Positions 3,401-52,374 of a DNA stretch of 64,000 nt are shown piece after piece. The translations under genes were made by a program, and so were the position numbers. Position 1 is the first letter of the stretch; the number at the start of each line of letters is the position of its first letter. Location of the stretch: positions 62,001 to 126,000 of the forward strand of contig OY253681.1 of assembly GCA_958009085.1 (NCBI GenBank), given 5' to 3'. The notes under the pieces were generated by a model, which worked only from the letters and a program-made list of their open reading frames with translations, was not told the origin of the DNA and ran no database searches. The DNA comes from Protoeuglena noctilucae (lineage: Eukaryota).

Positions 3401-6400
3401 CTCCTGCTAGACACCCTCACACCCACTCTGTCCATCTCACTCACTCAATCACCTCTCCCCCACTCACCCCAGACATCTCCTCATCCATCCTCGACCTCCT
3501 CTTAGACACCCTCGCCTCCCCCGCCACCCAAGGCACCGACGCGGCATCTGCCAATCTGCGCGCGTTCTGCTACGAGGGCATCGCGGCTGTGGCTAGGAGA
3601 AGACCCGAGGCAATGAGGAGCACAAAGCACGCGCAACACGTGCCACAGGCGAGAGGGAGGGGGAGGGGGAGACTGGGATAAGACATGTGGCTTTGTTAAA
3701 TGGAATTGTGATTGGCAAAGGGACTTTGCTTGCTCACGCTCCGTCATGCACGCTCGCGCTCTTACCACCCACCAACCCGCTCTCCCTCACCTCTCCCACC
3801 ACCCAATCCCTGTGTAACCACACCTCGTCTCTCACATCTTACCCCTCACCTCACCCCCCCTCTCCTCAGCTCCTCTTCGACCGCCTCTCCACCGAGCCCC
3901 CCGCCACCCGCGGCACCCTGCAAGCGTCCCTGTCCTCGCTCGCAAGCGCGTACGACCAATCGGGGTATCGACTGTCGCTGTATGGCACCATCGAGGGGGC
4001 TGCCCAGTCACCGGCGGAGGCGGCACGGGCGTGTGCGGTGGAGTGGGCCGTGAGGCTGTTTGAGTACCGGGATGCCAGGTGAGGGGAGTGGTTGGGTGTT
4101 TGGGGTGCATGCGATACATATGTTGAGATGGGCCGTGAGGCTGTCGGGATTAGGCTGTTGTAATAACAGCCTAATATCATTATGACTACGACTCTTAGTC
4201 TTATGACTCATAGTCTTATGACTATGACTACGACTTACGACTCTCATTCCCACCGGCACTTGCTCCTCCCTCCCCCCACCTGCAGGGCGCGTGCGGTTTG
4301 CGTGATGGCTGTCAGTGACAAGCGCCCCGCAGTGCAGGAGGCGGCCAGGAGGGGACTGGACCCATCGCAGTTCCACAAAACAGGCGAAGGCGAGAGAGAA
4401 CGATTGTGTATATGTTACATATATATCCAATTATGTCACGTACAGTCAGCTAAGCTGGCCCATCAGACACCCACTCACTCCCACACACCTCACCCACTTC
4501 CCCCCCATCTCAGACAGTACCACCCATCCACCCACCCACCCCCCCCTCCCTCCCCTCAGGCCCCGCCACCCCCCCCACCGCTGCTGACCTCCTCCACTGC
4601 ATGGCATCACACGCCCCATCCCTGTCCAGAGACCCAGACCCCTCATCCGACCCCGCACTGCCACCCGAGTCGATGCAAGCGATGGTGTCTCTGATGCTGG
4701 CAGCACACACCGCCAGACCATCTAAAGCATCTACAGATGCAGTGGCGAGGGTGCTGCGACATGCAGCGGCGCCACGGTCGCCCTCGTCGGTGCTCGCCAC
4801 TGCCATGCATGCGCTCGTGGCGCTGATGCTGCCGAAAGAGGTGGCAGAGGCGACGACGGGTGCTGAGGGAGTGGGGGTGGGGATGATGGCAGCAGGGGGG
4901 GCGACCGTTAAGCAGGCAGTTGGGGTAGGGTCAGCAGGGGCAACAGCAGACGCAATGACAGCTGAGCAAGCAGCGGGGATGACTGGGTCAGTGTCAGTGT
5001 CAGCGATAGCGACAGTGTCGACATGTGATGCCTCAGCATTGGGGGTGGCGCGTGAGTGGGCATCGCGAGCCCCCCGTCTGCTGGAGGCGGGGGCGGCGGC
5101 GACGGACCCCGCGGTGCGGCTGCGGGTGGCGAGGGCGGCGGGGGTGGCGCTGGCAATCGCGGGGGATGGGGCGGGGGCGGAGGCGGCGGCGGCGTGGGCC
5201 AAAGCGCGTGCCATGTGTCCGGCACCTGACAACAACAACGCAGCAGAGGGGATGAAGAAGAGTGCTTTTGATTTCCAAACGGTGGACTTTGCGATGCTGG
5301 CCGGGGCTTACCTGGCCGCTGCGTGTGCGGTGCTGGGGGGAGAGGCGATGGCGGGGGTGGCGAGGGCGGCAGCGGGGGCGACGGTGGAGGCAGGTGAGGG
5401 TTTGTGCGTGTGTGGAGGGGTGTTGTATTGGTAGTAACGGTGTAATGGCAGGTTATCGATGTTGTCTGGGACATGTGAGATTGATGTCGGCGTGTGCGAG
5501 AGTGGGCTGGGTTCGTGCGTGTTGTGTGCACTGGTTGGTCGACATGAACGCAATACAGTGCGAGTGCAAGTAAGGTTAACTTGTCAATCATCACTCCCAG
5601 TCCCTTCCTTATCTATCCCCGCAGCCCTGTCCGCGCTTTCTCACCCCCGCCACGCCCAGCACCGCCGCTCGGCCCTCTCGGCCATATCTGCGGTGGCGGG
5701 GGCGGGGATGCTTTTGAATGACGAGGTGGCGAGGGTGGCGACTGCGCTCAGTCAGCTGGTGCAGGACAGGGAGGGGGAGACGCGGGCCAGGGTGGCGCGG
5801 TGCCTGGGGATGGTGTGCATGGGGGATGCGGGTGAGGGAGAGGGACGAGGGGTGATGGTTGTGATGTGAGTGGGTGTGAGTGGGGATGGTGTGCATGGGG
5901 GATGCGGGTGAGAGGGAGATGAGGGTAGTGGGGGCGGTGGGCGATAAGAGTGGGTGTGATTCTACCAGTCGCACTCCGTTACTAACCAAACCCTCACCTG
6001 TCCATGTGTGTGTGTGCCCCACCATCAACAACAGCCCCCCCCCCCCCATCTCCAGATGCGGCCATGCGTCCCCTCGCCCCCGACAGCCGCCCATTGCTCC
6101 ACTTAGCCTGCGACTGCGCACGTGGCACGTCCGATGAAACAGTGCGGCTGGCAGCGGGGCAGGCCATGTGCCTCGCATTTGGGTGTCCCGCCGTCACCCC
6201 CCGCCATCTGCTGGCCGTGGATGAAGTGAGGATCGACCGGTGGGGGGGCGTGGAGAGGGTGTGGGAGGGGATCGGCAACGGTGAGAATGGGGGAGGGGGT
6301 GAGGGAGGGTGCGGGTGGCAGTGTAGGTGTAAGTGTGGGATTGCTTACTGCTGACCAGCAATGCTGCATGGCAGAGACTCATATAGTTAGCGACTGAGCA

Positions 6401-16902: not shown

Positions 16903-19900
16903 TTAATCTGCCGCATCTGCTGCGATGACCGCCTCGTCCCCATCGAACTCAAGCTCTCCGCGCAGTTTATCCAGCTCTTCCAGCGCGTCGCTGAGCCCAA
17001 GCGCCTTGCACGTCTCCCCGCATTGGTGGCTCTGGAAGAACTTCAGCATGCCCAGCCTCCCAAAGCTGCACGACTCGTCCGCCAGCAGCGTCGGGTGCAC
17101 GCAGTGAATTTCGGGGTCCGTGAGCTTGATGGCCGTCTTGCCCACACGCACACCCCGGATGCCAGCCACCATGAGCCGGCCCTCCGTAGCTTGGTAGGTC
17201 CAGTGGGTGAAGGCGCGCGTGAGCTCGTCCCATGCCTCCATATTGACGTAGCCTGCATGAAGGGGGGCAAGGGGGGCCAAGGTCGCATCACGACACCATG
17301 CAGGGGCTAGAGCCACGACAGGTACCACGTCAATACATGACACAACCTTGCTGGCTCCTCAGACCACGGCGCCCTCTTGATGCAGCGCACGCACTGCGCC
17401 AGTGCCTCACCGGCGTTGGACGACCACTTGATAAATTTGCCCAGTACGAGCTGCTGTTGCAGGCGGAAGATTGTCGTGGGTTCCTTTTGAACAGTGCCAG
17501 AAACCGTCCCTGACGGGATGCCCTGGTAAGAGACCATGCACGTATCCAGGTAGCTCAGGGGCTTGGGCGGGGCGGATAGCTTGTCTTGGACCTACGGAGG
17601 GCACTTTCGGCAAAGGAATGTGTCAAAGCTGTGACATCACAGCTGCGATCTGCATGCCGTGTTCCATGCATCACATTTGACAGTTGGCCATCTTTCTCAC
17701 CTCACTGACACGATCGTTAAAGAGGCTGGCCAGCATGGAGGCGACCCCATATGCTTGAAGCTCCTTTTCGTACCTCTTGGCGCTGCGCTGACGAGCAGTC
17801 TGCAGATGGGAAACAGGTCCATTACAACTCCGCGATAACTGCCAACCACGGCATCGCGGCTGGCCTTTCTGTGCTGACATGCACCTTGAACTCCTTGAGG
17901 ACGACAATGGGGTATTCCATGCTACTGCTGTAGACGACCACTGTGCCATCAGCTGCCTTGCGCTCGACCCTTCGGTTGTTGTCCTTGATCTGCTCCTGGG
18001 CCAGGAAGGCGACCTTGTGCGTTCCCTCAAAGCCTGGCGGAGGATGGTTGCGGATGAGGTAGTTCCGGCATGGTTGCGAAGGCTTTGTGCCGGGAGCGAT
18101 GAAGTGGTCATCGACGTCCTCAAGCAGCCTCTTCAGGTCGCCCTGGTAGTCCGGAGGCATCGTGATCTCGACCTGCGTTGCCGCTTGGTTTTTCCTCATG
18201 ACTTTGAACGCTTTCTTTTACTTGGCCAGCGTGGCTTCCCATGCCTTCTTGGTCTTGCCCTCCAGGCTCCACTCCTCGAGCATCTTCTGGATCTCCTCGG
18301 ATGCGGTGTCGCTGGTGCTGCTCTCGCCCTCCTCGCCCTCATCCACAGGGGCCATCTCCGCATCCACGTCGTAAGCCCATTTCAGCCCACGCGGCAGCTT
18401 CCTCGCCAACGAAACCCTGGACAAGCTTGCTGAAATGGTGCCCAGCACTTCTCTGATCAGCTTGGCTACCAGGTCTGCAAGGCGCTGCTGGGACGGCAAA
18501 ACACTTCCTGCAGGCAACACATACCAGATGCGGTCATGTATCACACATGTACCAGAAATCGATGATCGGTAGTGGCACTACTCGTTCATCCAGGCAATCC
18601 ATTTGAGGACACGTACAAGTAACGTGCACAGTGACTGAATGAATACCCACAGGACTGCTGGCGCTTACCTTCGTCACGCTTGACCTCCGTCTCCACGAGC
18701 CAGTGGCGGCCCTCGTCAGCCCTGTCAATGTCACAATCGCGCAGAATCTCCCGCAGCTTCTGCACCATCTTGGCACAATGCTCTCTCTTCAGGTGGCACA
18801 GCGTGTAACGCTGCACCCCCAGGCTCTGCAGTCTCTGCATGGCTCTTTGTGCCTCGACTTCAGGCTGGTTGCGGCCCTCGGGGGGACTGCGAAAGTAGTC
18901 GTCGTTTGGCTCCCCGAGGTTGTGCATGCCTTGGCCATGCGCCGGTGCATCCAGGACGTGGAAGATGGCCTGCGTCGGGGCAGTGACGTCGACTATGTGG
19001 GTTCGACTCAACAGACGCCAACCATGGCACATCGGGACCGTGCGGCCCACCCACCTTGTTCCTGTGCCCCCATCCCATGTTCCCCGCCTCGAGCATGGCT
19101 CCAATGACGTCCTCTGCGTAGTCGTAGCCACCTCCAGCCTTCACGTTGCTAAGGAACTCGACAACCTTCTCCGGGTCGGGTGTAAACTCCAGGCGCTCGA
19201 ATTGTTCGTAGTCGGATGTGCTGCGCACCACATCACGATATATCAGAACTCCATACCTCACATTCCCAACCGCCCTCGTGTACCTCCTCTGAACCTCCGT
19301 GACCAACTCGTTGCTAAAAGCGTTCTTGATGCTGCAAAGAATCGCACGATGCATTAGTGGTGCCCCTTTCATGCCAAGGAGCGCATGCCTTCAAGGCTTG
19401 TTCCTCTGGCACAGCACGCACCTCTTAATGTACGGCTCCATGCTGTGGGTCCCGTCCATGATGAACAAGATGTCGAGCTGCAAGTACCGCGGATCGTACA
19501 AGTTGGGGGAAACGCAAGTAAATTCTCAACCCGGCTGCGATGCAGAGCACAACAACGCACCTGGGTCTGCTCCTGCTCCTCTCTTAAATGCTCTTGGAAC
19601 TTATGCATTTCCAAGTACTTCTCTTTCCTGAGGTTGTAGTCAACTTCTTTCCTCAACTTCTTCCGCCCCTTCGCCTGCAATTTAGTGGCGTCACCCCCCT
19701 CCCGCGCTTCGTACATCTGCCTCAAGTGCGGCAGGTAGTCCAGCCTGTGCATCTCCATAAACCGACTGAAGTACTGCGACGGAAAAAGATCCGGTGCCAA
19801 TGGATGTGCTGTGACTGACGCTGCTTAATACAGGGAAGCTTCGCTGATCTTCTGGTGGCGCCCGGCATGCGCACCTGCTGCCAGTGGGCCAGTTCGGACA

Positions 19901-22900
19901 GCTCTGTGCTGGTCGCCACTCTCTCCGGCGTCAGCAAGTACACGTTGATCCCTGCGCAATGATGAGCCCACTGTCAGTGCAACATCCGAGCTGACCTGAC
20001 GCTTTTGCAGCGAGCATTGAGGCCCACCCGGCACGCACCGGCGTTCTTGGCCTCCCTAACGACTGACACATAGTCTCCGTCACCGCTTATGAGGACGATG
20101 GCGTCCCCACGCTGTCCTTTGCGCACAGCATGGTCGATGAGAGGCTTGATCACGTTGTCCGATGCTGCGTGCCCAAATAGCTACAAATGGCTTTGGTTAC
20201 GGGGGAGAAGGGTTACATACGTCAACGCTCCACCCACTCCCCCTTTGCTCACCGTTGATGCGGCCACCAACATGGAATAAGACGTGGGGGTGCACCACTT
20301 CGATGCGCTTTCTGACCTCTGGAGGGTACAAATGGAGCCTGTCCTCCGCAATCGCAACAGTCAGGCTCACACGTACCTTCTGCCCCAAATCCTTCCCAAA
20401 CACCCTCAGCATCACATCAAACTGGTCGTGTGGGAAGAGGCCGTCCTTGTCGCAGGGGAGATACAGCGGGACCTGTGGCGCAAGAAACAACATGCTCACG
20501 GACCGCGCAAGGCAGACTTACCGAGCATGCGATACATCTACCGCACAGCTCACGCTGTTCATGTCCCAGAAGACGGCGACACTCCCCGCCAGGGCGCCCT
20601 CTGGGGCCGGCCACTTCTGGTCGTTGTTGTTCGACTTCCAGAGCACCATCTCCTCCCAGCCACACGTCCTGTCTGGCCAGTTCTGCCTGTCGCGTATCAT
20701 GACTTTGTAACCCTCAAGTTCTGGAAGCTGGGCGCGTCTCCAGGTGCCAAACACGGCGTCAACATCAGCCGGCGTTCTGCATGAAAAACACTTCCAAGCA
20801 TTTTTTATTACGTGCTCATCGTATTTTGAACCCCGACAAAGCATAGCCTTGATGATGGACGACTCACCCCACGCTCTGCACCCACGGCTCCAGCAGCTGC
20901 CTCATCTCCTGTATGGTGGGGCGCTTGCGGGGGTCCGGGTCCAGGCATCGCGTCAGGACCGGCCTGCACGGACAATTGGCATCGGTGATCAAAACCATCC
21001 TCGCTCCTGCTTTGCGATCTCACGACATGACCGGCCGCCCTCACCTGAGATCGTCTGGCACCTCCTCCAGGTGCCGGTGCTGCAGCGCCCTGCCTTTGTG
21101 GTGCTCGACAGGAATCATTCTCGGCGCGATAGTGTCAAAAGGCTTCTTGCCCGTGGCCAGGTGCGCCAGGGTGGCTGCCACTGCATATACGTCCCACGAC
21201 ATATCTGCAGCGGCGGAGAGCCTAGCTAACGTAAAGTGGGAAAATCTGCAAACAACTGTCGACGTTTCAGAGGCTACAGTGCCTCGCCTGTCCCCGCAGT
21301 CTCGGTCGAGGCTATCTGGTCAGGGGGGGCGTATTGGTATGTCAAGCCCAGCAGTAATGGAACATTGACGGAGATTCCCTGCATTCATAGAGGCAGGGCC
21401 ACAGCTTACTACCTTGCAGGAAAGTGCGAATCTGGCCTCACCTTGGCCGCTCCGAAGTCGCACAAAGCCACGGACCCATCACTCCGCACGAGACAGTTGG
21501 CGGGTTTGACGTCACAGTGCACCACCCCGCACGTGTGCAACTCAGCAATAACCGCGCAGATGTCAATTATGGCCCTGGAGAGCTCTGCTGGCGTCAGCGG
21601 TCCGTCCCTCTCCCGCAGCACGTCAGCCAGCGACCCCTTACACCGCTCCATCACCATCATCAGCTTGAATTCCATCTGCACAGCCCCGTACGTCCAGCAA
21701 ACTCGCTTGGTTTGTTGCGACACCCACATGGACAACACCACCTCTGCGCGACTGTCGTCCTTGTCGTCCATGATCTTGACAGCCACGGGCTTCTCCGCGC
21801 CATTCGTCTTCAGCTTAGCCTCCCTGACAATGCTCTGCCCTTCACCCAGAACGGAACCGATATTCGACACGGTTGACGGTGGCAGCAGCACCATGCGCCC
21901 CAGCTCCCTCCTCTGCTCCTCCGTGAGCGTCACATCCCCCCTCGTGACGGTCCGCAGCGTATGCACGACCGTCCGGGCGTCTCCCGACTGCAGTAGCGAC
22001 GCAAGCCTCACCGGGGCTGCCGAGGTGGTGCTGTGCTGGTCGGTGGATGCAGCTGCGTGCCGGGCACTGCGGGGGGATGGGGTCGCGAAAGACGCGGTTT
22101 ATCATGCATTCCTGCAGCATCGCATAACACCCCATCCTCTCTGCTTCCTCCCTCACACCTGACATCCTCCTCCCACCGCCGCATCTCCTCCACCAGCACC
22201 GCCACTGTTGGACGCCCCGCAGGGTCCCTGTCCAAACACTGCGCCAGGATGGGCATGCGGATGCGGGACGCCTCGAAGCGAGCTCACAATAACGCACTCA
22301 GCGCCCTTACATCTCACGCCAGGCCGTCTGTGCAGGCTGCCTGGTCGTCTGTGCAACAGTCCCCCACGCTCACCGGATGCGCTCGGGCACCTCGTCCAGG
22401 TGCATGTGCTGCATGGCCCTGTCGTACGCGTGCTCAAGGGCGATCAAATTCTTGGCGACCGACGCAAAGGGCCTCTTCCCCGTGGCCAGGTGCGCAAGGG
22501 TGGCGCCCACGGACCACACGTCCCACCGCGGATCTGCACAGGGGGACACCAGCAGTGGGACAGATCGGCACCGCCGCAGACGATGGCAACATCACGATAC
22601 GCCCACCATCCCCCCGGCGGCCTAGCAAACTCACCCGGCCTGACCCCTGGCACGGCGCTCTGCTGGTCCAGGGACGCGTACGGCGCCGTGTGCGTCAGCG
22701 TGCTCTGGGCTGTGCGGTCCATCGGCTGCGGACAGCGACGCACACCGGTGACATGCAGCGACTGAGCCCGCCACCCAGCGACCATGCATCCCGCCCGCCC
22801 ATCCGCACCCCCCCAGCTTTGATATACACTCGCCTTGGACCCGCCAAAGTCCGCCAGCACCACCGTGGCGTCCTCCCGCACCAGGCAGTTCGCGGGCTTG

Positions 22901-23631
22901 ATGTCGCAGTGCACCACCCCGCACTCGTGCAGCTCCGCCAGGCTCGCGCACACGTCCCGCGCCACCCGCGCCAGCTCCGCCGTGGGCAGCCCCGCCCCCC
23001 CCAGCTCCCGCAGCCGCCCCTCCAGCGACCCCGCGCACCGCTCCATCACCAGCCACACATCCACCCCCCGCCTCACGCACCCGTACACCTTGCACACCCG
23101 CGGGCACTGCAGCGAAGCCCGCATGGCCGTCCCCACCTCCCGCGCCATGCGCCGCGCGTTGTTGACCTGCAGCGACTTGACCGCGACCGGCACCGCCATC
23201 GTCTCCCCCACCGGGCCGCGTATCGTCAGCGTCGCTGTCAGCACCCGTGCGTTCGCGTCCTCCGCCCCGATGCGCTCTGCCACGGACAGGTCGGACAGGT
23301 TGCCCCCCGGCAGCAGCAGCGCGCGGCCCAGCCACGCCGCCGCGTCCTCGACCGAGGCGATCGGCAGCGACTCCACGTAGCTCGACGCCGCCTCCGACAT
23401 CCCCGCGATCGCCTCCGCCGCGAGGTCGTGGCCCATCCAGCATCGCCGCGCGCCCTCCCCGCCCTCCTCCCCGCGCCGGCCTTCCCATGTCAGCCACCGC
23501 GCCGTGCACGCCTCGCACGCGATGCACTCGCACGGCAGCCGCTTCAGCACGCGGCCGGCGTCCGCCGCGTCGACGCCCCGCGCGCACAAAATGCACGTCG
23601 CATCAAGCTCGCCCTCCGCGAGACCCATCAT
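16903..23631 (-). CDS. Multidomain protein: RING-like Zn finger - Ser/Thr kinase - Ser/Thr kinase - NYN (PIN-like) domain - vWA - alpha-kinase-like domain
   Basis: Phase-compatible hand splicing across roughly 18 exons. Kinase 1: VAVK/HCDIKPAN/DFG/WDVWSVG. Kinase 2: VAVK/HCDVKPAN/DFG/WDVYAVA. NYN: VAVFWDMNS|VP, RINASDNVI, IVLISGDGDY. vWA: LDILFIMDGTHSM, YRD, GGGYDYAEDV, HVLDAPAHG. Alpha-kinase: VVLKEF, FIKWSSNAG, AFTHWTY, LTDPEIH, HQCGETC. One acceptor (22255-22257) reads CAT instead of CAG. Confidence 0.8.
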
Positions 23632-24538
23632 GGCTCCCGGGCGTCGAGAGCGGCCGCTTCAGCTTCACGGACGGCCGATCATTGCCGGCGGGCCTCGATC
23701 CGACGACGACCGCATGGGCCTTATTTGTCAGTCAGACTAATGGAGTCTGACTTGTGCAGGGTTAGGGTTAGGTGCGCAGTGGGACTGCGGGCGATGCCAA
23801 ATATGGACCTCCACTTTTACGCGGTGCTGGATGGAGCGCCAGCCAGCGCCTGAAGCGGCGTCCGCGCGAGCAGTCCCGTCGCTGGCCGGCTCCTCGCCCA
23901 GCATGCGCCTCTCGGCTACCCGTGTCGAGAGGGATTTCAGGGACAGGCCATGCATGCGGCGCCTGGCAGACTAGGGACGCAGTGGCTGGCATGGCTGGCA
24001 CACCGATGGCATCCCAGACCCGCCCTTGTCCCTCTACAATCCCTCCCTTGCCATGGCGTGCATTCGTCTCACGCACTCGCCTACGAGCATGCACCTACAG
24101 TACCACGCGCCCCCATGTCAGCAGTGTCGCCATCTTTGCGGAGTGTGATGCCCGTCCCCGCGACCCTCCTGCTGAGGACATCAGGGCCTGTTGAGCCGCC
24201 GCCCCGCCTCTCCTGTCTCTGAATGCGCCCCGCCACATCCCTCTGGATCAGCAGCTTGTTGTGCTTGGCCCGAAGGACCTCGGAGACTCGTCACTGACAG
24301 TTGCGGTGGCTGGGGATGGAGGACAGGGGCGGGGTGGTCAGGGCCGAGTGAGGGCGAGACGGGGTGATGAGCACGTGCGGCAAACGTCGCATAGACGATG
24401 GCAGGGCAGCCGCAGCCGATGCCCCGACCCTGTCACCTGCCGCGCCCACTTGCATGCTGCGGCACACATCACACGCTATGCACCACCTGACATGCGCTAA
24501 AAGCCCACCCCACTCCCCCACCTGGCTATTGCGATCAT

Positions 24539-26230
24539 TCAGCCGGGCTGGTCACCGCTGCGCTTGGCCCGCAGCTTCTTCACCCAGAGCTCCACCAGCG
24601 CCGGCTCCCCGCACGTGTTGACCAGGTCCGTGCCAAGGTCGGCCAGCGGCAGCACCGCATCGAATCTGCGCGACAACTTGCTCACAACAGCGCCAATGGG
24701 CGTCCTGCCCTTCCTGTCCCGCGCCTCGAGGTCTGCCCCGGCGTCCAGCAGCAGGTCCACGCACGCGGCGTGATGGACCCTGTGCAGGGGCGTCTGGCCT
24801 TGGATGCTGATGGCCCTGACGTCAGCTCCTGCCGCCAGCAGCAGCCGCGTAATCTCGACAGCCTCGGGCTCACTGTGACGTTCCACTGCCAAATGGAGAG
24901 CCGTGAGGCTCTTGCCCCCGAATGTAATGGACGTCCGCTCCCAGCTCGATCAGAGCTCGGACGGCGTTGACGCGGCCTTTACCGCATGCAAGTTGAAGCG
25001 GGGACTCGTGAAACCCATCGCTCTGGATGCTCGCCCCACGCGCTGCCAGCCGCTGCACCATCTCATAACTACGCGCCCAGTGAATCGGGGTCCATCCATC
25101 CATGTCCTTGGTCGTCACGTCGGCCCCCAGATCCACCAGGGTCTCTATGATGACCAGCTCGTCGTCGCGTGCTGCATGGAAGAGTACCGTGCGACGGCCA
25201 ACGACACGGACATCGACATCCGCCCCCGCCTCCGTTAGCCGCCTCACGATGCCCGGGGTCGGCTGACCTTCGCACACCGCGAATATCGTAAGATCTATGA
25301 CACCCGGCGCAACCTTGGCTGATGCCCCCGCCTCCAGCAGCGCCTCCACCACTGCCTCGTGACCCCCATACCCATCATGCACCAACGCCGTCGGCCAGTT
25401 ATGGGGTAGGTTGGGGTCGCCAGGCGCATCCACCTCTGCCCCCGCTGCCAGGCACATCTTCACTGCCTCCACGCAGCCCCGCGCCGCGCAGTATGTCATC
25501 AGCGGCCACGCTCCGTGCAGCCGCCGGTTGACGTCCGCCCCCATCGCCACCGCCGTCCGCACCATCCGCGCCACCTCCTCGTCCCCCAGCACCTGCACCC
25601 ACTCCACCTTGCCGTCCGCTCCACGCCCCACTGACCGCCGCGCCCGCACCGCCACCATCAGCGGCGATTGGTCCGGGAGCCCGTCGCCATCGCACTTGTC
25701 ATCGGACTCCTCGTCAGATGCCCACTCGTCACCGTGGTCGGCACCAACGGTCCAGGAAATGCCGTTCATGTCCGACTCCTCCGCCACCAGCAGGGCCAGC
25801 CACCACAGACCCATGCTCGCCAGGTGGTGCGCATGGGAGCCCTCGAGCACCCACACCGCCAGCGTGGAGACGATGAGCTGATCATCTCCTCGCTCGAGAT
25901 AATCGAAATCACTACGTATGTCATTCCTCCTGTCCTCCGCCGTGGCCCGGATGCCCCACGCCCTCCACACCTCGTCCACCTCATCGCGCATCTCCGGCGA
26001 CACCTGCCGCGCCGCCGTCGCGTCGCTCAGGGGCACCAGCCGCAGGATCTCGCGGTGCAGCTCCGCGGGCAGGTCGCCCCACCCTGCGCGCGCGACCGGC
26101 CGATGCCGGGGGCGTCCCGGCCCAGCCAAATGCAATGCAACTGCAGACGGCCTCGCTGCAGCGCCTCACCCACGCGCGGATCCCTCCGGCTGGCCCTCGA
26201 CGCTTGCTTGGTCTTCTTGCCTCCCGCCAT
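24539..26230 (-). CDS. F-box + ankyrin-repeat protein, with one apparent frameshift
   Basis: MAGGKK...[33 protein letters not shown] is F-box-like, followed by ankyrin repeats ([28 protein letters not shown]). A frame change in a G run near 24914-24919 joins ...DVHYIRG to [13 protein letters not shown]. Confidence 0.8.
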
Positions 26231-26777: not shown

Positions 26778-28467
26778 TCAACCCCCCACGACCCCCGTGA
26801 TCCTCCACCTCCAGTAGTCAGCCCATTCAAACACATTGCGAGGCGAGCCATCCACACGCGTGACGCACGGGCCGCCCCCTGGGAGCGCCCATGACTCGCC
26901 CACAGCCAGGCGAGGTGCCAGGGCCATCTCGGCGCCACTCGACGACGCGGCAGGATCCCCTCCCTCCACGGCGCGCCCCACCCACCCCGCGACCACCGCG
27001 TTGACCACGTCCGGCGCCTCGTGGTGGGGGCTGCGAGCGGCACGGAGGAGTCAGCCTCGTGGGAGGCAGTGAGGCACTTGGGGCGTCGCGGCGTGCAGAC
27101 GCGTCCACCTCGGCAGCACAAGCGCCTCACCAGTGTCCCCCGGTCTCTTGCAGAGGCATCCATTGCAGCAGCACAAGCGCCTCACCAGTGTCCCGCGGGT
27201 GCGATCTCCCAGTACTCGAACGCCCTGCTCTGGCCCCGCAGCGCGCGGCTGGCCCGCTGGCCCCACAGGGGCACCACCCAGGGGTCGTCGCGGCCGTAGA
27301 GGAGGAGGGCGGGGGCGGTCACGGACGCGAGGGCCTCGTGGAATGGCCGGGAGGGGCGGGGGCTGAAGGCGATGGAGGCGAAGGCGTCGAGCGCGGCGGG
27401 GTGGAGGGTCGGGCGGAGGATGCCCGCCGTGAGGACGGGGCACGCGGCGGCAGAGGCGTCCACGTACACCAGCCGCAGCATGGCCGACACGGTCTGCGGA
27501 GGCGGCGGGGTAGCCAGGGCGCGTGGCACATTGTTCACTGGATGACCTGTTCGCGGGTTTGGGTCGCGGAAGTGATGTAGCTGCTGCCAGCGACACCCAC
27601 CTCTGGCCGGCGCAGCTGGTCCCACCAGAGACGCTGAATGACGGCCTTAAGCGGGCCCGGCGCAGGCACGGCGCCGTCCCAGAGCCACGAGGCCCGGGGC
27701 GCCGCGTCGGCCTCTGCCTCCGCGTCGGTCTTTGCCTTTTCGGGGGGCAGGAATCCCCAGAAGGGCGTGGCGTTGAGCAGCACGAGGCCCCTGCACACCT
27801 CCGGGTGCGCGCTGGCGAGGTGGGTGGCCAGGAAACCGCCCAGGGAGTTCCCGACCAGGACGACGGGCTCGCCGACGACGTGGAGCACGAAGTCACGCAG
27901 CATCCTGACCCAGGTGTCTGCGCTGTACCTGAGGCGCTCGCCGTCGTCCACCGCGCCCTCGCTGCCGTACTCCGCCGGCCAGCTGCGGCCCTGGCCGAGG
28001 ATGTCAAGCGCAAAGACGCGGTGGGTGGCAGAGAGCGCCTCCACCTGCCGAGAGAAGTGGAACCAGCCGACGCCGAAGCCCGGAACCAGGAGCAGCGGGA
28101 CACCGCGGTCACCCCTCCTGGGATCACGGAAAGGCTGCTAGGCTGGTAAAGAGAGGACACCTGGCGTGTCCTGCGCGCAGCAGCGCTCCTCGATCGTGGC
28201 ACACCTGACGAAGTGGATTCGCGAGCCCCACCGCCAGTCCCAGTACTCCCCCTCCTCGTCTATCGTGTACGTTACCGCCCGCTCGACTGGCGCGGCGCTG
28301 GAGGCCCTCGCCAGCACGCGACGACCCGATACGCGGCGCGCATCGCGTGCACCGAGGCATACTGGTGCTGGCAGCACTGGGACCACCGCCGACCGCGATG
28401 AGGTGGTCGCTGGCTCGCCCCCCCGTCCGGCTACGCTAGGCCGGGCGCGCAAGGCAATGGTTGTCAT
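26778..28467 (-). CDS. PPH: Pheophytinase-like alpha/beta hydrolase with putative plastid transit peptide
   Basis: Ala/Ser/Arg-rich N-terminus, LLLVPGFGVGWFHF, GNSLGG nucleophile elbow, LLNATPFWG (PPH-type motif), GRDDPWV, AGH|CPHHEAP. Confidence 0.8.
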
Positions 28468-31589: not shown

Positions 31590-33997
31590 TCAGTTCAGGT
31601 CCGGCTGGCGGTTGGCCATGCGCAGCCGGTTCCACTGCCGGCCCGAGGGGTCGACCTGGCGCGGGGCCTGGATGATGACGGGGATGGGGAGGAAGCAGAA
31701 GTGCGTGTTGACGAGCCCGACCGTGGTGCACGTGTAGCCCGCGAAGGCGGCGTGGACGGCGCCCTGGGCGAGCGTGGTGCAGTAGATGCGGTCCTGGGTC
31801 ACGGTCGGGATGGAGCGGATCATGTACGAGGGGTCGATGTACTTGACGTCCGCGTCCTTCACCCGCGCCTTGACCTCCCGCTTCAGGAATAACCCGAAGT
31901 CCTGCAGGATGGGGTTGCCCGAAGCGTCCTTGGCGTCCGCGCTCTCGCTCTGCAGCAGGTCCTGCCCCGCGCCCTCGGCCACGCAAAGCACGCAGTTGCC
32001 CTTGCGCTCGAGGACCTCGTCGATGTACGTCATGACCTTGTCCAGCGTGAACCGGATCTGCAAGCGAGGCACACGCGGCAATGCGTGGGAATGTCGGTGC
32101 ATCCTGCATGTGTTGGTGGGGGTGGCAGGGGTCCCCCGCACGCGCGGGCGCGGTCCCAATGAACGCAGCTTGCCTCGGGGATGAGGCAGATGTCGACGAC
32201 GCCCGAGGCGAGGGAGGCATTCATGGCGACGAACCCCGACTGGCGTCCCATGAGGCGCACGATGCCCACGCCCCGGTGGGCACTGGAGGCCTCCACCTTG
32301 GCGGCGAGAATGGCGCGCTGGGCCTCCTCCACCGCCGTCTCGAACCCGAACGTCTTGTCGATGACCAGGATGTCGTTGTCAATCGACTTAGGCACCGCCA
32401 CCACCGAGCACACCACGCCCGCGCGGCGGCACTCCATGTCGATGGCGTTGGCAGCCGCGTTGCCCCTGCGAGCGGGCGACGGCGCGGCCCCGTCGCGCCC
32501 GGCAGGGTCCCAGGTGGCAAGCACGTGCGAGAGCTGTGATGAGGGTGCCCCCTGGGCTGCTCGTCTGCTCACCCGTTGCCCCCGAGCACGAACAGCATGT
32601 TGACTCCCCACAGGTCCAGGCGCCGGACAATGTCTGGCACGTTGGCGTTGCCGCGTGAGGTGCCCAGGATGGTGCCGCCCCTGCAGGTGTGAGGTGTGAA
32701 GAAAGGCAATCGCCTCAGAGAGAGACCGAACCGGAGATTGCAGCAGCCGATCAGCGGAAGGCGAGCGGGTCGTAGCTAATGCCGCCGCTGCCGCACTTGA
32801 GGTGGATGCCGTCGACGACCTCGCGCGTGAGGGGCATGGGCGGGATCTTGCGGTCAATGAAGCCACGGAGGCCGTAGCGCACGCCGAGGATCTGCTCCTC
32901 CGGGACGCCGTAGTCGAGCAGCATGTAGACGATGTTCTGCACGGGCAGCGCGAGGGCAGCGTGTCGGGCGAAGGTGAAGCTGGCGAGGCCCAAGCCTCGG
33001 TCCGTGCTACCGTCTGCGGCGCAGCTCGCCTGGATGATGTCGTTCAGGCCGGGACAGAGGCCCCCGCACGTGACGATGGCCGCCGTGACCTGCTTGGGCT
33101 CGAAATACACGTTGCGGCGGGGCCCCGAGCGAATGGCCCAGCTGCGGAAGCAGGGAAGGCGGCATCGTTCACTCGACTATAGTCAGGTCAAGTAGCTGGC
33201 TGGGACAGGACATCAGGCCGCAGGCAGCTGCTGAGACGGGAGGCGCCGGGCAGGGCGTTAAGCAGCTCACTTGGGGAGAGGCGCGCACTCGCCGTCGATA
33301 GACATCCCGTCGCATCCGCTCCCCGACGACTCGGGCGACTCGTACCGCACCGCCCTCAACGCCACGATGTCGTGGTCGCCGACAAACCCTGCGGGGGACG
33401 CCCCACCACGCTTCGCCATGGCTCGGTTCTCGCGTCGCCGCCCCAGCCGCGCCGGGCCCCCGATCCCCCATCCGCGCACGCTCACCTCCGCCGTAGTTGT
33501 TGTCGCGCTCGACAAGGGGACTGAGCCTTCTTTCGAGCTTGTCGCGGAGGTTGGGCAGCACCAAGACATCGTCTGCGCGCAGCGAGCGGGACGGCTTGCT
33601 CTCAGGGATCGCGGGATGGCGGACATGACGAGCCCACGTCATCCGATGACAGACGTCGAGTGGGATTGGACGCCAGCCGCGGCGTCGAGCGCGCGGGGGC
33701 AGCCAGCACGGGGTTCGTTGCTGTTTCATCGTCACCTTGCGACACCCCCGGGTACGCGCCGCCTTGCACGGTTATGATCTCCGACTTGACATTGGTGATG
33801 ACGTCGTCGTCCCTCCTCGAGCCGTCCTTCACGGCGTTCCCGTCGCTCGGCGTCCCGTTGGCGACGACCCGGCGCGCAGAGCGCTTAGATCCGCGCGAAG
33901 AGGACACCACCGCCGCAGTGAGTCTCCTAGATGCCGAGGACGGCGGGGCGCCGGCCCGGCACGACGCCCCGTGGGCGGCAAGGAGGGCGCCCGGCAT
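31590..33997 (-). CDS. PFK: ATP-dependent 6-phosphofructokinase, plant plastid type
   Basis: [75 protein letters not shown]; transit-peptide-like N-terminus. Confidence 0.93.
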
Positions 33998-34377: not shown

Positions 34378-37300
34378 TCACCTCCCCTTCTCCTCCCCAG
34401 TCGCCTCGTCGCCCTTCTCCTGACCCATCTCTTGCTCCCCCTCCTCCTCCCCAGACTTGCTCCCCCTCCCCCCCGTCCCCTCCAGCCCCTCCAAGTCCTC
34501 CTCATCCCCCTGCTCCTCCCCCTTCGCGCCGCTCCGCGCCTGCAGCCGCGTCATGCAGCCCCTCACCGCCGCCTGCACCGCCACCGCCGCGTGGTGGTGC
34601 GCCACCGAGTACTTGGGCGGCTTCGTGGGGTCGTGGCCCACCGTGCGCTTCAGCTTGCGCCAGAACCGCGCCTCCTCCTTGTGGTTCGACGCCACCAGCG
34701 CCTGCACCTCGTCCCGCAGCTGCAGAGATGAGGCGACAGGGGTCACGCGAAAGGGACGCTGAACATGAGAGAGGGTCGTGAACAAACATGATAAATGCGT
34801 CGCAGCTAAGGTGTACAAGTTACATCGGGGTATCACATGTCATGTCATGTCTTCCACCCACGCCCCGTGCTACCGGACCCCCCCCCCCCCAACATCACTG
34901 CTCGCCTGTGGCATGGCGTCGAGGGCGGCCTTGTGCGCCAGGGCGTAGAGGACTTCGTGGAAGGTCACCAGGCCATCGCGGTCGGGGATGTCGCAGCGGA
35001 GGAGGAACTGGGTGAGGGCCGAGAGCGACGCCTGCTGCCCGCCCATGCCCAGGGGGGGCGGCAGGTCATCGACGATGAAGGGCAGGCGGGGGGCAGGCAC
35101 GCGGCCTGTGCCGTCCGGGTCGTGCTTGCTCCACACCTCCCTGCGGGGATGAGATAGGAGCGGTGCGATGAGAGTTGAGTGGGGATTGAGATATGATCGA
35201 TGCATGGCTCGCGGCGCGCGTGGGACACGTAGGGGCATGCAGTGGCAGTGTGCAGTGCGAGGCGTGGCTCACCGGAAGAGCTGTATGTCCTCTTTGCGGA
35301 CAGCAAACGTCTCATCCTCGGAGGAATTCATGTAGTTGTCCAGAATGACGGCAATGATCATGTTGACCTGTGGGCGAAGGGTGAAGGGGGAGAGGCCGGT
35401 GGCAAGAGAGAGGTTATCGGCAAGAAAGAGACGCCTGAGTGATCAAGGCTGCCTCCGTCGCCTTTCTGTGATCGCCGCCGTCCGTCTCAGTACATGGATG
35501 CCTACCACTCTGTGTGCCTGCCACTCTATACATGCCGCCGCCGCCACGCATGCAACCCCCCCACCCCCGCGCAAGCAGCGCCACTCGCCATGAGGTACGA
35601 GATGAAGATGACGTAGGAGAAGAAGTAGAGGATGGAGTAGGCCGCGCCGATGGAGCACTGGTTGCGGTAGTCCACCCCGGCAGTCAGGCCGTACGTGTGC
35701 ACGTTGGGCTGCGACCCGTGTGGCCCGTTGACCCAGTCCCCGCTCCGCAGCCCCGCGGACGGCACGTCCCGCAGCATGAGCGCGCACGAGTCCACCACCA
35801 GCGTGTCGCGCATCACTTCCGTCCACGTCTCGCCCGTCGCAATCTGCAGCACCACGCCCATCGACCCCAGGAAACTGCCGAAGTTCTCGTGCCTGCGGGT
35901 GAGGAGGGAGGCAAGGGGCGCTACAGCTTGCAGGCTCAGGGCTAAGAGGAACGGCTCCCTGTGTCAGTTAAGTGACAGCAGCACTCGAGTGCTTGAGAGG
36001 GAGGCCAGGGCACGGGCCAGGCCTGCGCAGAGGCCAGGTCACCCCACGCGCGCCCTCGCTTGCACCAAGCTCGCGCCCTCACCTGTTCAGCGCGGTGCCG
36101 AAGCGGATGTTGCCGAACAGCTGCATCCCGACCACGGCGTAGATGAAGCTGAACAGCAGGAAGATGGCCCCGACGTTCCACAGCGCGGGCAGCGACGTCA
36201 GGAGGGTCTGCAGGAGCAGCCGCAGCCCCCGGGCGCGGGGCACGAGTCGGAAGATGCGTGCGACACGGAACACACGCACCAGCGCCACGACACCGAGCCC
36301 ACCCCGGGCGCTGGCGGTGGGCGCGGGCGCGAGGCCGATGCCGACGACGCTGGCGGCCGCGACGGCAAAGTCGAAGACGTGCCATGGATCGCGGAAGTAC
36401 CCCGTGGGCCCCAGGGCGGTGAGCTTGGCGGCGGCCTCGAAGCAGTAGCAGGCGGTGAAGGCGACGTTGGAGTAGAAGGAGAAGCGCTGCCATGGAGGGG
36501 ACATGTCGTAGTGATCCATGGCCATGGCGGCGATGTTGGCGACGACCACCGCCACCACCGCAGACTCGAACGCCGGGGCGGTGACGAGGTCGTAGCACGC
36601 GCGGCGGATGGGGCTGCGCTCGGGGCGCGGGGAGCGCCGCAGGGTGCCGGTAAGGATGGCCATGCGTCGTAGGTTGATCCACCGCTGCTGGTTCTCTGTC
36701 AGGAAGAGCGACCGCCCCTCGTTGCGTCGCTTCATCTGGCTGAAGCGGTCGACGAGGATGCCGACGAAGAGGCGGAGGAGGAAGAAGTTGGAGAGGAGCA
36801 TGAAGGCCACAAAGAAGGCCGAGGCGGCGCGGCGGGCGCCGCGGACGGGGGGCCGCGGCTGGCCGGTCGCCGGGTCGGGGCTCCGGGAGTCGACGGCTCG
36901 GAACATGACGTCCGACCACCCCTGCGCCGAGCTGACTTCGAAGAGCGTGAGGAGCGCGGCGCCCGTGTCGTCGAAGTGCTCGGGGTAGCGCTCCCACCGC
37001 GTGCTGACGGAGTAGGGCGGCACGGTGGCGTTGATGGCCGAGTGGAACCACGTGGAGGTGGCGGTGAGGATGCCGCTGGCGCACTCGGCTTGCGTGAAGC
37101 ACTGCCCGCGGGGACGGAAGCGGTAGCAGGGGAGGTCGTCGCCCGTATCCACGTCCACGCACCGCCCGAAGGCGCCCCCGAAGAACTGCACTCCCATCAC
37201 CGCTGCCACTAGGAAGAAGAGGAAGCACACGAGCAGCACGTTGACGACGGCGGGGAGGGTGCCGACGATGGCGGACACGATGACGCGGAGCTGGGGCAGG

Positions 37301-40300
37301 CGCACGGCCATGCGCATGGGGCGGAGGGCGCGGGCGGCGCGGAGGGCCCGGAGGCCCGACAGGTTGCTGCGTCCGACGCCCGAGGCCTGGAGCGCCTGCA
37401 GCACGATGCTGAGGCACACCACGGCGAAGTCGAGTACGTTGTAGCCGGACCGGAGGTACGAGTGCGGCCCCAGGCAGAAGCCCAGGGCGGTGATCTTCAC
37501 GGCAGCCTCTGCCGCGAACGCGACGGTGAAGAAGACGTCGAGGGCGTTGATGGTGCGCTTGAGACGGCCCGCGGGGTCCAGCCCCGGCTCGTCCATCGCC
37601 AGCATGAGGCTGCTCCAGGCGATGAGGAGGAGCGAGGTGCCATCGAACCAACGCTGCCGCATCGCCCAGGCCGCGGCGCGCCGCAGCGGGTGCAGGTGCG
37701 GCTCCCCCGGCAGGCACAGCAGCGCGGGGTCCCGCAGCGCCGCCTCCAGGTCCGCCCGGTCCCGGTCCGCCAGCCCCACGCTCTCGGTGCGCCCCTCGCT
37801 CGCGGGCACCGACGCCCCCTCCTCCTCCTCCTCCCCCTCCCCCGGCGCCCCGCTTGCCTCTAACCCCACGAACGACCGCAGGTGGCTCACCAGCGACGCC
37901 CGCTTCCTCAGCCGCCCACGCCGCCCCGCCTGCGACTGCATCCGCGCAAGCAGCCCCTCGGAAAGGCGCGCCGAGGGACTCTCCCCGCTCCGCGCCGACA
38001 CCAGGCCCTCGCCGCTGCGCGCCACGTCCAGCGACGCCCGAGCCCCCCCCTTCAACCGCGACGTGCCCGGACCCCCCCGCCCCCCCCGCCCGTCCCCCGG
38101 CATCGTCGCCTCCGTGCGTGACTCCGCCCCTGATGACAGCCCCGCATCTCCCCCCGCGTCGCCCCCCTCCGTCGCCGCCCGCGGCCGGCACGCCTCAGGT
38201 CCCCCGGGTGACTCCTCCTCCCACTCCCCGGGTGACTCCTCCTCCCACTCCGGCGTGCCCCTTCGCGTCGGCTCCGACTCCAGTCGGAACATCACCCGCG
38301 CCGTGCCCTTGCGGCGGGGCGCCCCGCCCTCCCACGCCCGGCCTGGCCCCTCCCCCTCCCTCTGCGGCTCGTCGCTCGCACGCGACGGCCGCGCCCCCGC
38401 CCCCGCTGCAGATGCGGGCGCCGTCTCGGATGTGCCACCCGCGGTGTCTGCCGGCGATCCACGGCCCCAATCCGCCGACTCCGCCACGGGGCCCGGGCGA
38501 ACGGAGGGCCCGTGCATGGAGTCGGCATCGCCCTCGCTGCGCTCACTGCGCTCACTGCGCTCGGCCCCAGCCTTGCGATCTCCGTCGGGCGTCCCGCCCT
38601 CCGCCCGCCTTGCGCCTGACACACCCAGCCTGGCAGCAGAGCCGTGCCGCGAGCCGCCCCCCCCGCGCGACCCAGTCCCCGACCCAGTGAGGGACCCCAG
38701 CATCCGCGACCCGGCAGCCCCGATGGCCCCGCGTAGGGCCGACACGATGCGCCCCGCTGCCCCAGTCCCCTGCGACGCCTCGTCCCCGTCAGCCGCGTAC
38801 CCATCGAAGTTCTCCAAAAGGATGGCCAGGAATAGCGACAGCAGCACGAACACCCCCGCGACCACGAGGGTGAAGTAATAGAAGAACGCGCCCGGCCCCG
38901 TGGCAGCCATCGCACGGAAGAGCTGGGCAGACCACTTGTAGATGGCCAGGACCTGGAACGTGCTGAGCAACGCCCAGCCGAAGGAATCGTAACTCGCGTA
39001 GGGGACGTCCGCGGGGCCGACCTGGGCCAGGTAAGCCGGGACACCGTGGAGCGTGAGGACCTGGCAGAGTGCGCGGCCGCCGTAGGGAGACTCGGGGACG
39101 TCGATCCACGCGCCGGCCTGGGAAGGGTCGCAGTCGACGAAGCAGTCGCGGTGCAGGGGGCAGGGGAAGCCGAGGTCGTCGGGGCAGAGCTGGCGGGACC
39201 CGGGGACGGGGCATGTGTCGAGGTAATACCCGAACAGCTGCATGCCTGCGGGGCAGTGAGGAGGGGTGGTCAGGGTGAGGAGCAGCGTGGTTGCGCATTG
39301 CGGAACTGCGCTGCAGCTGGTGCACTAGCCCTAGCCCGGGATTAGAGCGCATGGTGCGGGGTCTATGTCTCGCTGCCGGCTCTCACCGAGGAGCGCGTAT
39401 ATGACCAGGATGAGGGCCAGCAGGACCAGGAGGTAAGCCACGGAGTTGATGCTGGCGGCCATGGTGGCCAGGAGGCGGTGGAGCTCTCGCCATCGCTTGG
39501 CGAGCTTGAAGACCCGGAAGATGCGGAAGGCGCGGAGGACGCTGAGGGCGGCGCTGCTGCGGCCGGGCAGTGCAGCGGTGATGACCAGCTCGGCCACGGA
39601 CGCGGCGACCACCGTGGCGTCGAAGACGTTCATGCGGGCGGTCCAGTACCGCCGCCACCCCAGGGCGACGTGCTTGAGGAGCATCTCAGCGGCGAAGAAG
39701 ACGGTGAGGGCGACGTTGATGACGTCGCTCGCGCGGCGCTGGGACTCGGGCATGCCCACGTGCTCGGCGGCGAGGACCGCCACGTTGGCGACGATGAGCG
39801 CCATCGAGACGTAGTCGAAGGCGGGGTGGTGGCACAGGCGCCAGCACGCCACCCGCACCGCCGCCCACCACCTCGGCCCTTGCGCCACATCCGCAGGCAC
39901 CTCCCTCGCCCCCTCCTCCTCTGCCCCCCCGGGCGCCTCCCACTCGCGCGCCTCGCGGTCCCTCTCGCTCTCCCGGCGGAACTGCTTGTACAGAACCGCG
40001 ACGAAGGTGGGTAGCGTGAAGTACACGCCCAGCACGAGCAGCAGAAGCAGGAAGATGGAGGGCAGCCAGGGGTTGACGCCGTCCTGTAAGGCGTAGAGGA
40101 TCTCGGTCCATCCCTCGATCGTCAAGACCTGGAAGACGGTCACCGACGCCTGCAAGATGTTGTCGAAGCCGGTGACGCCCGCGTGGGGGTTCTCGTAGGG
40201 CGCGCAGACCAGGCCCGGGTCGCGGTCGGGGGGCGACGGGCACACGAACCCGGCCCCCGCGGGCCCCAGGCGCGTGAAGGCGAGGCCTTCGGTGCCCGGG

Positions 40301-52020: not shown

Positions 52021-52374
52021 GGCCGGCGCCCGAGAGCCCTCGCGCGACGCTCGGATCGAGTGTAGAGTGAAAAACCCAGCGAGCGGCGCCGCGCCCTCCG
52101 CGTCAGCCCCCTCCGCGGTGGATCCCAGCCCACGAGCGCGCGCGAGCGGGGCGGTGTGTCGTCGACTCGCTAAACAACTGTGCTACCTCGGGTGTCGAGC
52201 GGGGCCCTGGCGTCCGACGCGGGTGTTGCCCTCGTTCCCAGCGGTCAGACGCGCTCAGCTCTTCGCGCTCGCGCTTGGGACGTCGATCGTATTTCGGAGG
52301 TGTCCCCGTGGGTCCGGGGAACGCGTCGTATTCTTGTTCTGGGCTCGGCGAGGGACGGTCCGACCGGGCGCGGG

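Follow-up and report, generated by a model that had tools for sequence, protein, structure and literature searches.

A probable gene fusion in a GC-rich marine eukaryote joining a RING-like finger, two protein kinases, an NYN domain, a vWA domain and an alpha-kinase domain

Several described systems approach the gene reported here. Alpha-kinases of the Dictyostelium VwkA type are built of a vWA domain, a linker and a C-terminal alpha-kinase, and a section of the review PMC2827801 lists vWKa together with eight vWA-alpha-kinases of Tetrahymena; the wheat resistance proteins Lr9 (PMC10260399) and Pm57 (PMC11153570) are presented, in parts of the two papers, as tandem kinases with a vWA domain in one protein. 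LabA/limkain-b1 (MARF1)-type proteins carry NYN RNases (PF01936). RNase L and IRE1 hold a kinase or pseudokinase N-terminal to an RNase in one chain, and this RNase is a KEN domain. The gene analysed here lies on the minus strand at 23631..16903 of a 64,000-nucleotide stretch of Protoeuglena noctilucae DNA (GenBank assembly GCA_958009085.1, contig OY253681.1, positions 62,001 to 126,000; called the window below and used for all coordinates). Its domain order is RING-like finger, Ser/Thr kinase 1, kinase 2, NYN, vWA and alpha-kinase (Table 1). It is probably one expressed nuclear gene of a GC-rich marine eukaryote in which two older units were fused: the first would be one of the stand-alone RING-kinases, which form a multi-copy family, and the second an NYN-vWA-alpha-kinase gene, in which the widespread vWA-alpha-kinase module would have been enlarged in a rarely seen way.

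Compared with the VwkA type, which has the same order of vWA, linker and C-terminal alpha-kinase, the gene adds the RING-like finger, the two kinases and the NYN domain before the vWA domain, and its alpha-kinase carries Gly and Arg for Asp and Gln. Stand-alone RING-kinases (P0001, P0176, P0194 and P0042) share its motifs and stop at the point where kinase 1 and kinase 2 do; each has a single kinase with no further domain behind it, whereas the window gene doubles this unit and splices it to NYN-vWA-alpha-kinase. As in RNase L and IRE1, a kinase fold stands N-terminal to an RNase in the same chain, and by this analogy control of RNA cleavage through kinase-driven association would be plausible; the RNase here is NYN/PIN-like and not KEN, no ankyrin or lumenal sensor lies inside the gene, and the gene is not a member of that family. 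The likeness to the cereal proteins is one of layout only, the kinases here being duplicates within an algal RING-kinase family. Cereal tandem kinase proteins are not known to carry NYN, alpha-kinase or RING domains. The NYN profile of the MARF1 type is matched by P0022, the one relative found that combines NYN, vWA and alpha-kinase, and the window keeps FWD, SD and SGDGD.

The exon model was built by hand on the basis of scripted translations, joints, pieces and loose ends of RNA contigs, depth arithmetic and alignment to P0022. It consists of 20 exons in phase with ~1,620 codons (coding sequence of 4,860 bases plus stop) and 19 introns of 63–161 bases each, 17 of them with GT-AG and two with GC-AG ends. 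GC content at third codon positions (GC3) is 0.80 for the coding sequence vs an intron GC content of 0.57, and this contrast, with 20 exons in phase, argues for a real gene rather than chance open reading frames (ORFs) of GC-rich DNA. The whole window is GC-rich (0.50–0.74 per 2 kb) and eukaryotic. The initial annotation, made from the letters of the window, had proposed that the ORF pieces between 23631 and 16903 join into one frame, which is borne out by the scripted translation and by RNA splicing. Inside the gene, GC3 steps from 0.93 in RING and kinase 1 (22834–23631) to 0.76–0.79 from kinase 2 on (16903–22066), which fits a younger or gene-converted 5' module. The share of GC-AG introns (2/19) fits GC-rich algae without identifying the lineage; an excerpt of a pelagophyte preprint gives 14–17% GC-AG introns.

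RNA evidence was taken from contigs of runs X1–X3, all of one marine metatranscriptome study, and DNA evidence from run X5, which is labelled organism A, has no library kind on record and was read as DNA. Sampled words of the stretch were found at 22–52% in four metatranscriptome runs of one marine study and at 96–98% in four organism-A runs. Six introns were seen as RNA-only CT..AC joints (18507–18667, 18969–19053, 19332–19421, 19774–19874, ~19952–20038 and ~20473–20553), four further introns followed from RNA loose ends (22833–22726, which is GC-AG, 21441–21379, 17884–17800 and 17700–17592), and the intron 17410–17253 was seen from RNA contig pieces. As a check, the depth that each long contig should add per bin under the spliced model was compared with the observed bins; for records 1 and 2 of X1 and records 7 and 8 of X2, expected and observed depths agreed within 0.1 (4.01/4.01, 7.86/7.86, 13.4/13.4). 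RNA contigs tile the gene from 21467 to 20115 (kinase 2 from DFG through the C-lobe into NYN exons 9–11, including the second GC-AG intron), from 20650 to 18220 (NYN, linker and vWA) and from 18013 to 16804 (alpha-kinase exons and ~100 bases of 3' untranslated region). No RNA contig of these runs lies over 18014–18219 or 23405–24524, and such gaps in cover prove nothing. The gene is expressed and spliced in natural marine samples. DNA contigs (X5) and RNA contigs (X1, X2) break at the same places, 18013/18220 and 20650, the latter just upstream of the Met codon 20649–20647, where P0022 starts; the common breaks suggest branch points with near-identical paralogous segments.

Four of the five junctions of the initial annotation are correct. 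WEEDV/SARHAA uses the acceptor at 22066, where the listed piece of X1 record 3 starts; this contig holds exon 5 from that acceptor with 44 extra letters on the 5' side, the placement of which is not listed, and the intron before 22066 has no X1 cover (bin 21718–22118, 10.10 expected vs 10.1 observed). WVQSV/GTPADV is crossed by X2 record 8, for which the depth arithmetic reproduces the bins; HWQQ/YFSRF corresponds to the joint 19773 to 19875 in three RNA runs; and EQTQ/LDILF is supported by X1 record 2 and by the continuous ORF of P0022. The fifth, KTKK/VEITM, is wrong. RNA contigs pass the proposed GC donor at 18244 unspliced, down to 18220, and P0022 holds nearly the same 24 codons that would be lost by this splice; the stretch is conserved coding sequence, and exon 17 runs continuously over 18507–17885. 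The segment SVSCAVDVSHAR after FWDMNS is intron (joint 20470 to 20552).

With the KTKK/VEITM splice removed, an in-frame TAA appears at codon 1300, between vWA and alpha-kinase. In run X5 a single contig lies there and reads G at 18218 (plus strand), which gives TAC, and P0022 has Tyr at this position (...ATLAKYKKAFKVMRK...; ATLAKYKKAF). The TAA at 18220–18218 would thus stem from an error in the consensus or be an allele of the strain, an error being about twice as probable. Reading TAA as a sense codon was ruled out: the gene ends with TAA where P0022 ends, and TAA is therefore a true stop in this organism.

P0022 was found when longer proteins were searched with the last exon, as the one match among 2,702 candidates (E 1.1e-51, 76% identity over the exon). 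It is a protein of 881 aa on a 3,175-base contig and is identical to the model at 626 of 870 positions (72%) from codon 749 to the end. Because it is one uninterrupted ORF, it confirms each of the eleven junctions between exon 9 and exon 20. As its ORF starts at the matching Met and ~530 contig bases lie outside the ORF, it may lack the upstream kinases, and P0022 may be a separate NYN-vWA-alpha-kinase gene without them. Metagenome contigs yielded no relative when scanned, with 63 pattern matches for P0022 and 544 for alignment A2; a search of viral contigs with P0022 found nothing, and NCBIfam assigned 0 families to it. Its structure prediction, run without an alignment, was unusable (mean predicted local distance difference test score 35.4, predicted template modelling score 0.23, no residue at or above 70 on the former scale), and alignment A1, of P0022 with 13 exon pieces of the window, was not used, several rows being misplaced at 23–25% identity.

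The RING-like finger has eight zinc-ligand positions and scores 18 bits (E 0.0035) with zf-RING_2, under the cut-off of 27.3; the family member P0042 passes this model with 28.5 bits (E 1.9e-6), and the Cys pattern is common to eight of nine aligned family members, the ninth being without its N-terminus. Both ordinary kinases passed the Pkinase model (PF00069, cut-off 31.7) on the exon pieces from N-lobe to DFG (scores in Table 1), and the C-lobe piece of kinase 1 gave a Pkinase fragment of 20.5 bits, below the cut-off. As the initial annotation had it, both keep the Lys (VAVK), HxD (HCD(I/V)KPAN) and DFG, seen in the translated sequence; since the catalytic loop reads HCD, both are non-RD (non-arginine-aspartate) kinases. 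The glycine loop of kinase 1 is degenerate (IGAEDANA, first Gly only) and that of kinase 2 reads LGEGQS, and in the two kinases the APE motif is replaced by APY and APP. The two are 45% identical over 166 aa (E 8e-37), from which kinase 2 is read as a duplicate of kinase 1. The best matches among solved structures were MST1, MST3, PAK4 and PknB at ~1e-9, a level at which no kinase group could be assigned. The PADLOC matches of the kinases (mad6 with 99.9 bits, and PD-T4-6) were rejected as signs of membership and taken for generic Hanks-kinase likeness.

Relatives of exon 1 came from a word search and from an exhaustive search, the latter with 73,584 matches at E <= 0.001 and five at <= 1e-30; the stand-alone RING-kinases were 37–50% identical to exon 1, with the same Cys pattern, HCD(I/V)KP(A/G)N and DFG, and P0001 was 40% identical over 97% of the exon. 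P0176 (383 aa) and P0194 (427 aa) look like complete spliced members, each with RING and a single kinase, and stop shortly behind it; stand-alone RING-kinases of ~380–430 residues look like a multi-copy family. Summed contig depth in run X5, which does not equal copy number, is 186–354 over 22119–23321 (exons 1–3) vs ~110 elsewhere, and this rise suggests near-identical copies. Several RING-kinase relatives are recorded on large contigs of the same lengths. When viral contigs were searched with the kinase alignment A3, 51 loci were found, with only short segments of 21–57% identity in giant-virus bins; the giant-virus matches are generic kinase likeness, and a recent viral origin was rejected as unsupported.

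Kinase 2 and NYN are joined over intron 8, the donor of which overlaps a TGA. If this intron is retained, the protein ends ...WVQSVG, at the place where stand-alone relatives end (P0001 ...WAKSLGV, P0176 ...WASSMGAL), and because the overlap lies at this very place the fusion appears to have been made by splicing over a former stop. Exon 9 is crossed by two RNA contigs, X2 record 8 and X3 record 12. For the exon 3/4 junction two solutions are candidates. The donor at 22374 is suggested by the end of RNA contig X3 record 15, where two further letters find no match, and by family homology (VPxxLR/PxL); the alternative with canonical ends and in frame would be 22391/22271, and all three junction options considered keep the downstream frame. 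At both ends of intron 3 (22257–22381, minus strand) stands the repeat CGCATCCG, in the pattern that a target-site duplication would leave; this may point to transposon-like intron gain. Position and phase of intron 3 are those of intron 7 in kinase 2.

Pfam matched 5 of 18 stop-to-stop ORF pieces of the gene. NYN (PF01936), split over four exons, reached 23.5 and 20.5 bits on single exon pieces, under the cut-off of 24.2, and 43.8 bits (E 4.8e-11) on residues 24–175 of P0022; the PADLOC NYN model gave a weak match to P0022 (E 1.3e-5). The acidic motifs FWD, ASD and SGDGD, which the initial annotation had reported as retained, are present both in the window and in P0022, and they presumably provide the catalytic Asp residues of a PIN-like active site. 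When sequences of solved structures were searched for the NYN part of P0022, only a chance match (E 1.3) to an unrelated design came up. For the vWA domain, the exon pieces of the window alone gave no Pfam match, and on P0022 the scores were 27.9 bits for VWA_4 (cut-off 27), 23.7 for VWA_2 (27) and 15.8 for VWA (23.8); a longer-protein search with vWA exon 16 scored 0 of 57 candidates. The motif of the metal-ion-dependent adhesion site (MIDAS) is DxSxS, and at this site the window reads DGTHS (DxTxS) and P0022 DGTNS.

The Alpha_kinase model (PF02816, cut-off 21.3) scored 67.2 bits on the last exon alone and 128.4 bits (E 4.4e-37) on P0022, and matches in the PDB were 4kuj, eEF2K, ALPK1, MHCK A and TRPM7. 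Where P0022 (VADIQGV), 4kuj and eEF2K have (V/C)DIQGV, the window reads VAGIRGV; at the Gly/Arg site, the RNA contigs that span it (X1 record 1, X3 record 10) show no other letters. We take the Asp of DxQG to be D1767 of human TRPM7. The review PMC2827801 names as key catalytic residues of the family an invariant Lys, which is K1648 in human TRPM7, and two Asp, D1767 and D1777. Since Gly and Arg replace the invariant Asp and the neighbouring Gln, the domain is probably catalytically dead. TDP, the zinc-binding His and Cys and the presumed N-lobe Lys (VVLKEF, assigned by position only) are kept, the C-lobe having been aligned to solved structures via P0022, and the domain is very probably inactive but folded. 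The initial annotation had spoken of two unrelated kinase folds in one chain: both folds are present, but with the catalytic Asp missing from the alpha-kinase the phrase probably describes two live kinases and one dead one.

The combined architecture was unfamiliar to the initial annotation and has proved rare in the searches made here, the full set being found in no other protein and P0022 being the one relative with NYN, vWA and alpha-kinase. Among the Atlas clusters nearest P0022, the six shown of 30 matches are all vWA-alpha-kinases of 615–800 aa from fungi, Chlorophyta and diatoms, none listing NYN. Neither the 21 long relatives of exon 1 nor the 32 representatives scanned of the 150 listed carry NYN, vWA or alpha-kinase, these 32 being the best-scoring within size limits, with P0032, P0002, P0052, P0053, P0056, P0057 and P0059–P0061 left out. 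Among the matches listed in a literature search of main texts, no paper paired 'NYN domain' with 'alpha-kinase' or described an NYN-kinase fusion. The vWA-alpha-kinase pair is a common eukaryotic module and the addition of NYN is rare; that such pairs exist, as the initial annotation stated, is seen in the Atlas clusters and in the review PMC2827801, and its statement that some cereal tandem-kinase resistance proteins carry a vWA domain holds for wheat Lr9 (PMC10260399) and Pm57 (PMC11153570).

Table 1. Coordinates of features of the candidate fused gene in the window (introns and junctions included)
Feature	Position	Strand	Basis or content
RING-like finger, residues 13–68, C-x2-C-x17-C-x-C-x2-C-x2-C-x21-C-x3-H	23428..23595	-	sequence
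Kinase 1, exons 1–4: VAVK 23187–23176, HCDIKPAN 22911–22888, DFG 22851–22843	22159..23280	-	Pkinase 67.6 bits
Kinase 2, exons 5–8: LGEGQS 21849–21832, VAVK 21786–21775, HCDVKPAN 21519–21496, DFG 21459–21451	20868..21862	-	Pkinase 75.4 bits
NYN, exons 9–12: FWD 20571–20563, ASD across intron 10, SGDGD 20087–20073	19875..20590	-	Pfam, mainly on P0022
vWA, exons 14–16: DGTHS 19456–19442 at MIDAS position, VLDAP 18957–18943	18669..19477	-	profiles on P0022
Alpha-kinase, exons 17–20: VVLKEF 17905–17888, FTHW 17211–17200, LTDP 17124–17113, SHQCGETC 17031–17008	17008..17959	-	
AGIRGV: Gly, Arg in place of catalytic Asp, Gln (DIQGV)	17149..17166	-	alignments
Exons 1–4	23631–22834, 22725–22635, 22533–22374 (or –22391), 22257 (or 22271)–22159	-	RING and kinase 1
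Exons 5–8	22066–21442, 21378–21288, 21204–21045, 20963–20868	-	kinase 2
Exons 9–12	20776–20554, 20472–20253, 20164–20039, 19951–19875	-	NYN
Exon 13	19773–19561	-	
Exons 14–16	19477–19422, 19331–19055, 18969–18669	-	vWA
Exons 17–20	18507–17885, 17799–17701, 17591–17411, 17252–16903	-	alpha-kinase (domain starts 17959)
Intron 1, GC-AG (AAG/GCGAGT...CCGCAG/CCG)	22726..22833	-	run X1 RNA loose end at 22727 = exon 1 end joined to exon 2
Exon 3/4 junction, two candidate solutions	22257..22391	-	8-base direct repeat CGCATCCG at both candidate ends
Intron 6, GC-AG (ACAG/GCGAGG...CTGCAG/AT)	21205..21287	-	X2 record 8 depths under spliced model match, 4.01 vs 4.01
Intron 8, kinase 2 to NYN, donor GG/GTGAGT overlapping TGA	20777..20867	-	read-through 'G*'
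In-frame TAA, codon 1300, exon 17, between vWA and alpha-kinase	18218..18220	-	scripted translation; hidden by the KTKK/VEITM splice of the initial annotation
Terminal stop TAA	16905–16903	-	

Just upstream of the gene, on the same strand, lies an ankyrin-repeat gene (24539–26165, minus strand; Pfam Ank 1.2e-22) with its own stop. Its summed depth in run X5 is 4,600–5,000 over 25327–26128 vs ~110 nearby, and this part looks like a highly repeated element. The ankyrin ORF was considered as the 5' exons of the fused gene and rejected on account of its own stop, an in-frame stop 27 bases above the ATG at 23631 and the lack of a joining RNA contig. Elsewhere in the window, 36082–40782 (minus strand) holds five Ion_trans stretches in long ORFs (2.4e-101, 7.4e-77), as would fit a gene for a voltage-gated cation channel of the multi-repeat kind; an alpha/beta hydrolase (1.7e-18) lies at 27538–28137 and a phosphofructokinase fragment (9.8e-22) at 32033–33043, both on the minus strand; and the C-terminal domain of ANKRD13 (1.5e-13) is matched at 61089–61694 (plus strand). 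The region 44000–48400 has a low GC content of 0.50–0.51 vs 0.57–0.74 elsewhere and carries minus-strand right-handed beta-helix ORFs (Beta_helix 2.2e-19, NosD 8.4e-9). A match to the Mur_ligase catalytic domain (2e-8) at 52174–54042 (plus strand) is unexpected in a nuclear contig unless it is folylpolyglutamate-synthase-like or plastid-wall-related.

Several points weigh against the fused-gene reading and the functions assigned to its domains. Kinase 1 is tied to kinase 2 by the 44 unlisted letters of X1 record 3, the frame and the splice sites; donor 22374 is without an in-frame AG acceptor, and no canonical in-frame solution fits the end of the RNA contig; the link from vWA to alpha-kinase is without RNA cover, is carried by the open frame, the DNA and P0022, and holds the TAA in the assembly; the ORF of P0022 starts at the Met matching codon 749, with its ~530 bases outside; the three RNA runs come from one study; and all catalytic-residue roles were transferred from other families. 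If the locus were instead to give separate products, a RING-kinase-kinase protein would end at the TGA of intron 8 and an NYN-vWA(-alpha-kinase) protein would start from Met 749, the fused chain would be a minor read-through, and the strain's chain would also stop at the TAA. This would agree with the intron 8 donor overlapping a stop exactly where stand-alone relatives end, with the start of P0022, with the break of DNA and RNA contigs at 20650 beside that Met and with the TAA before the alpha-kinase in the window. However, the spliced RNA contigs X2 record 8 and X3 record 12 cross 20650 and intron 8 in frame, the DNA run X5 reads TAC at the stop, and X1 record 1 shows expression and splicing of the alpha-kinase exons; separate products are considered unlikely. 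It is very improbable that the gene is decaying into a pseudogene: the in-frame TAA, the loss of catalytic Asp and Gln from the alpha-kinase and the donor at 22374 without a canonical in-frame acceptor could be read in this way, but there are 0 frameshifts in 1,620 codons, GC3 is 0.80 throughout, identity to P0022 is 72%, the alpha-kinase keeps its zinc-binding His/Cys and TDP, the mRNA is spliced in natural samples and the TAA is absent from run X5. A single expressed gene fusing two older units remains the reading that we consider probable.

For the function of such a chain, a kinase-gated, RNA-cutting signalling protein is a tentative proposal, its mechanism being put together from the parts. 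The vWA domain and the dead alpha-kinase end would serve as a platform for partner binding or self-association, the two non-RD kinases would phosphorylate in trans once brought together, and phosphorylation would switch the NYN RNase, perhaps the RING too, on or off. The initial annotation suggested a sensor-kinase-RNase module, possibly antiviral or related to cell death. In such a sensor, a ligand would be perceived by vWA and alpha-kinase, the kinases would pass on the signal and the NYN RNase would be unleashed, and the protein would be a functional analogue of RNase L, IRE1 or the cereal tandem kinases. The kinases do adjoin an RNase in one chain, and both are non-RD (HCD). The non-RD trait is enriched among innate-immune kinases. 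The RING-kinase part belongs to a multi-copy family (X5 depth 186–354 vs ~110; relatives on large contigs), and wheat resistance proteins with tandem kinases and vWA exist, as sections on Lr9 (PMC10260399) and Pm57 (PMC11153570) describe. An immune or kill-switch role, however, is speculation drawn from analogy only, and against it stand that RNase L and IRE1 use an RNase of the KEN type and not NYN, that the PADLOC matches are generic kinase models (mad6, PD-T4-6) and a weak NYN model, that no close relative was found in viral contigs and that summed depth does not equal copy number. A sensor of this kind is accordingly rated as rather improbable. Equally doubtful is its more far-reaching version, a recently assembled NYN RNase switch of a marine alga triggered by self-association, which would be a convergent counterpart of RNase L/IRE1 made of other components, with sensing or oligomerisation by the dead alpha-kinase and vWA, a fast-duplicating RING-kinase trigger and an antiviral or cell-death use. 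The kinase-gated signalling protein is the functional proposal that we prefer, as a tentative one.

For annotation, the locus teaches how much can depend on a single base: with TAC at 18218 the alpha-kinase is part of the protein, with TAA it is not. P0022 keeps the catalytic Asp and Gln, and its comparison with the window gene could test what a domain gains on becoming a scaffold. The gene looks like a case in which two genes were fused when splicing came to bypass a former stop codon. Should the fused chain be the main product, it would be a natural domain-fusion experiment, expressed in the open ocean, in which an NYN/PIN RNase stands between two live kinases and a vWA-pseudo-alpha-kinase, and it would offer a candidate, open to testing, for RNA decay under kinase control in organisms other than animals and fungi.

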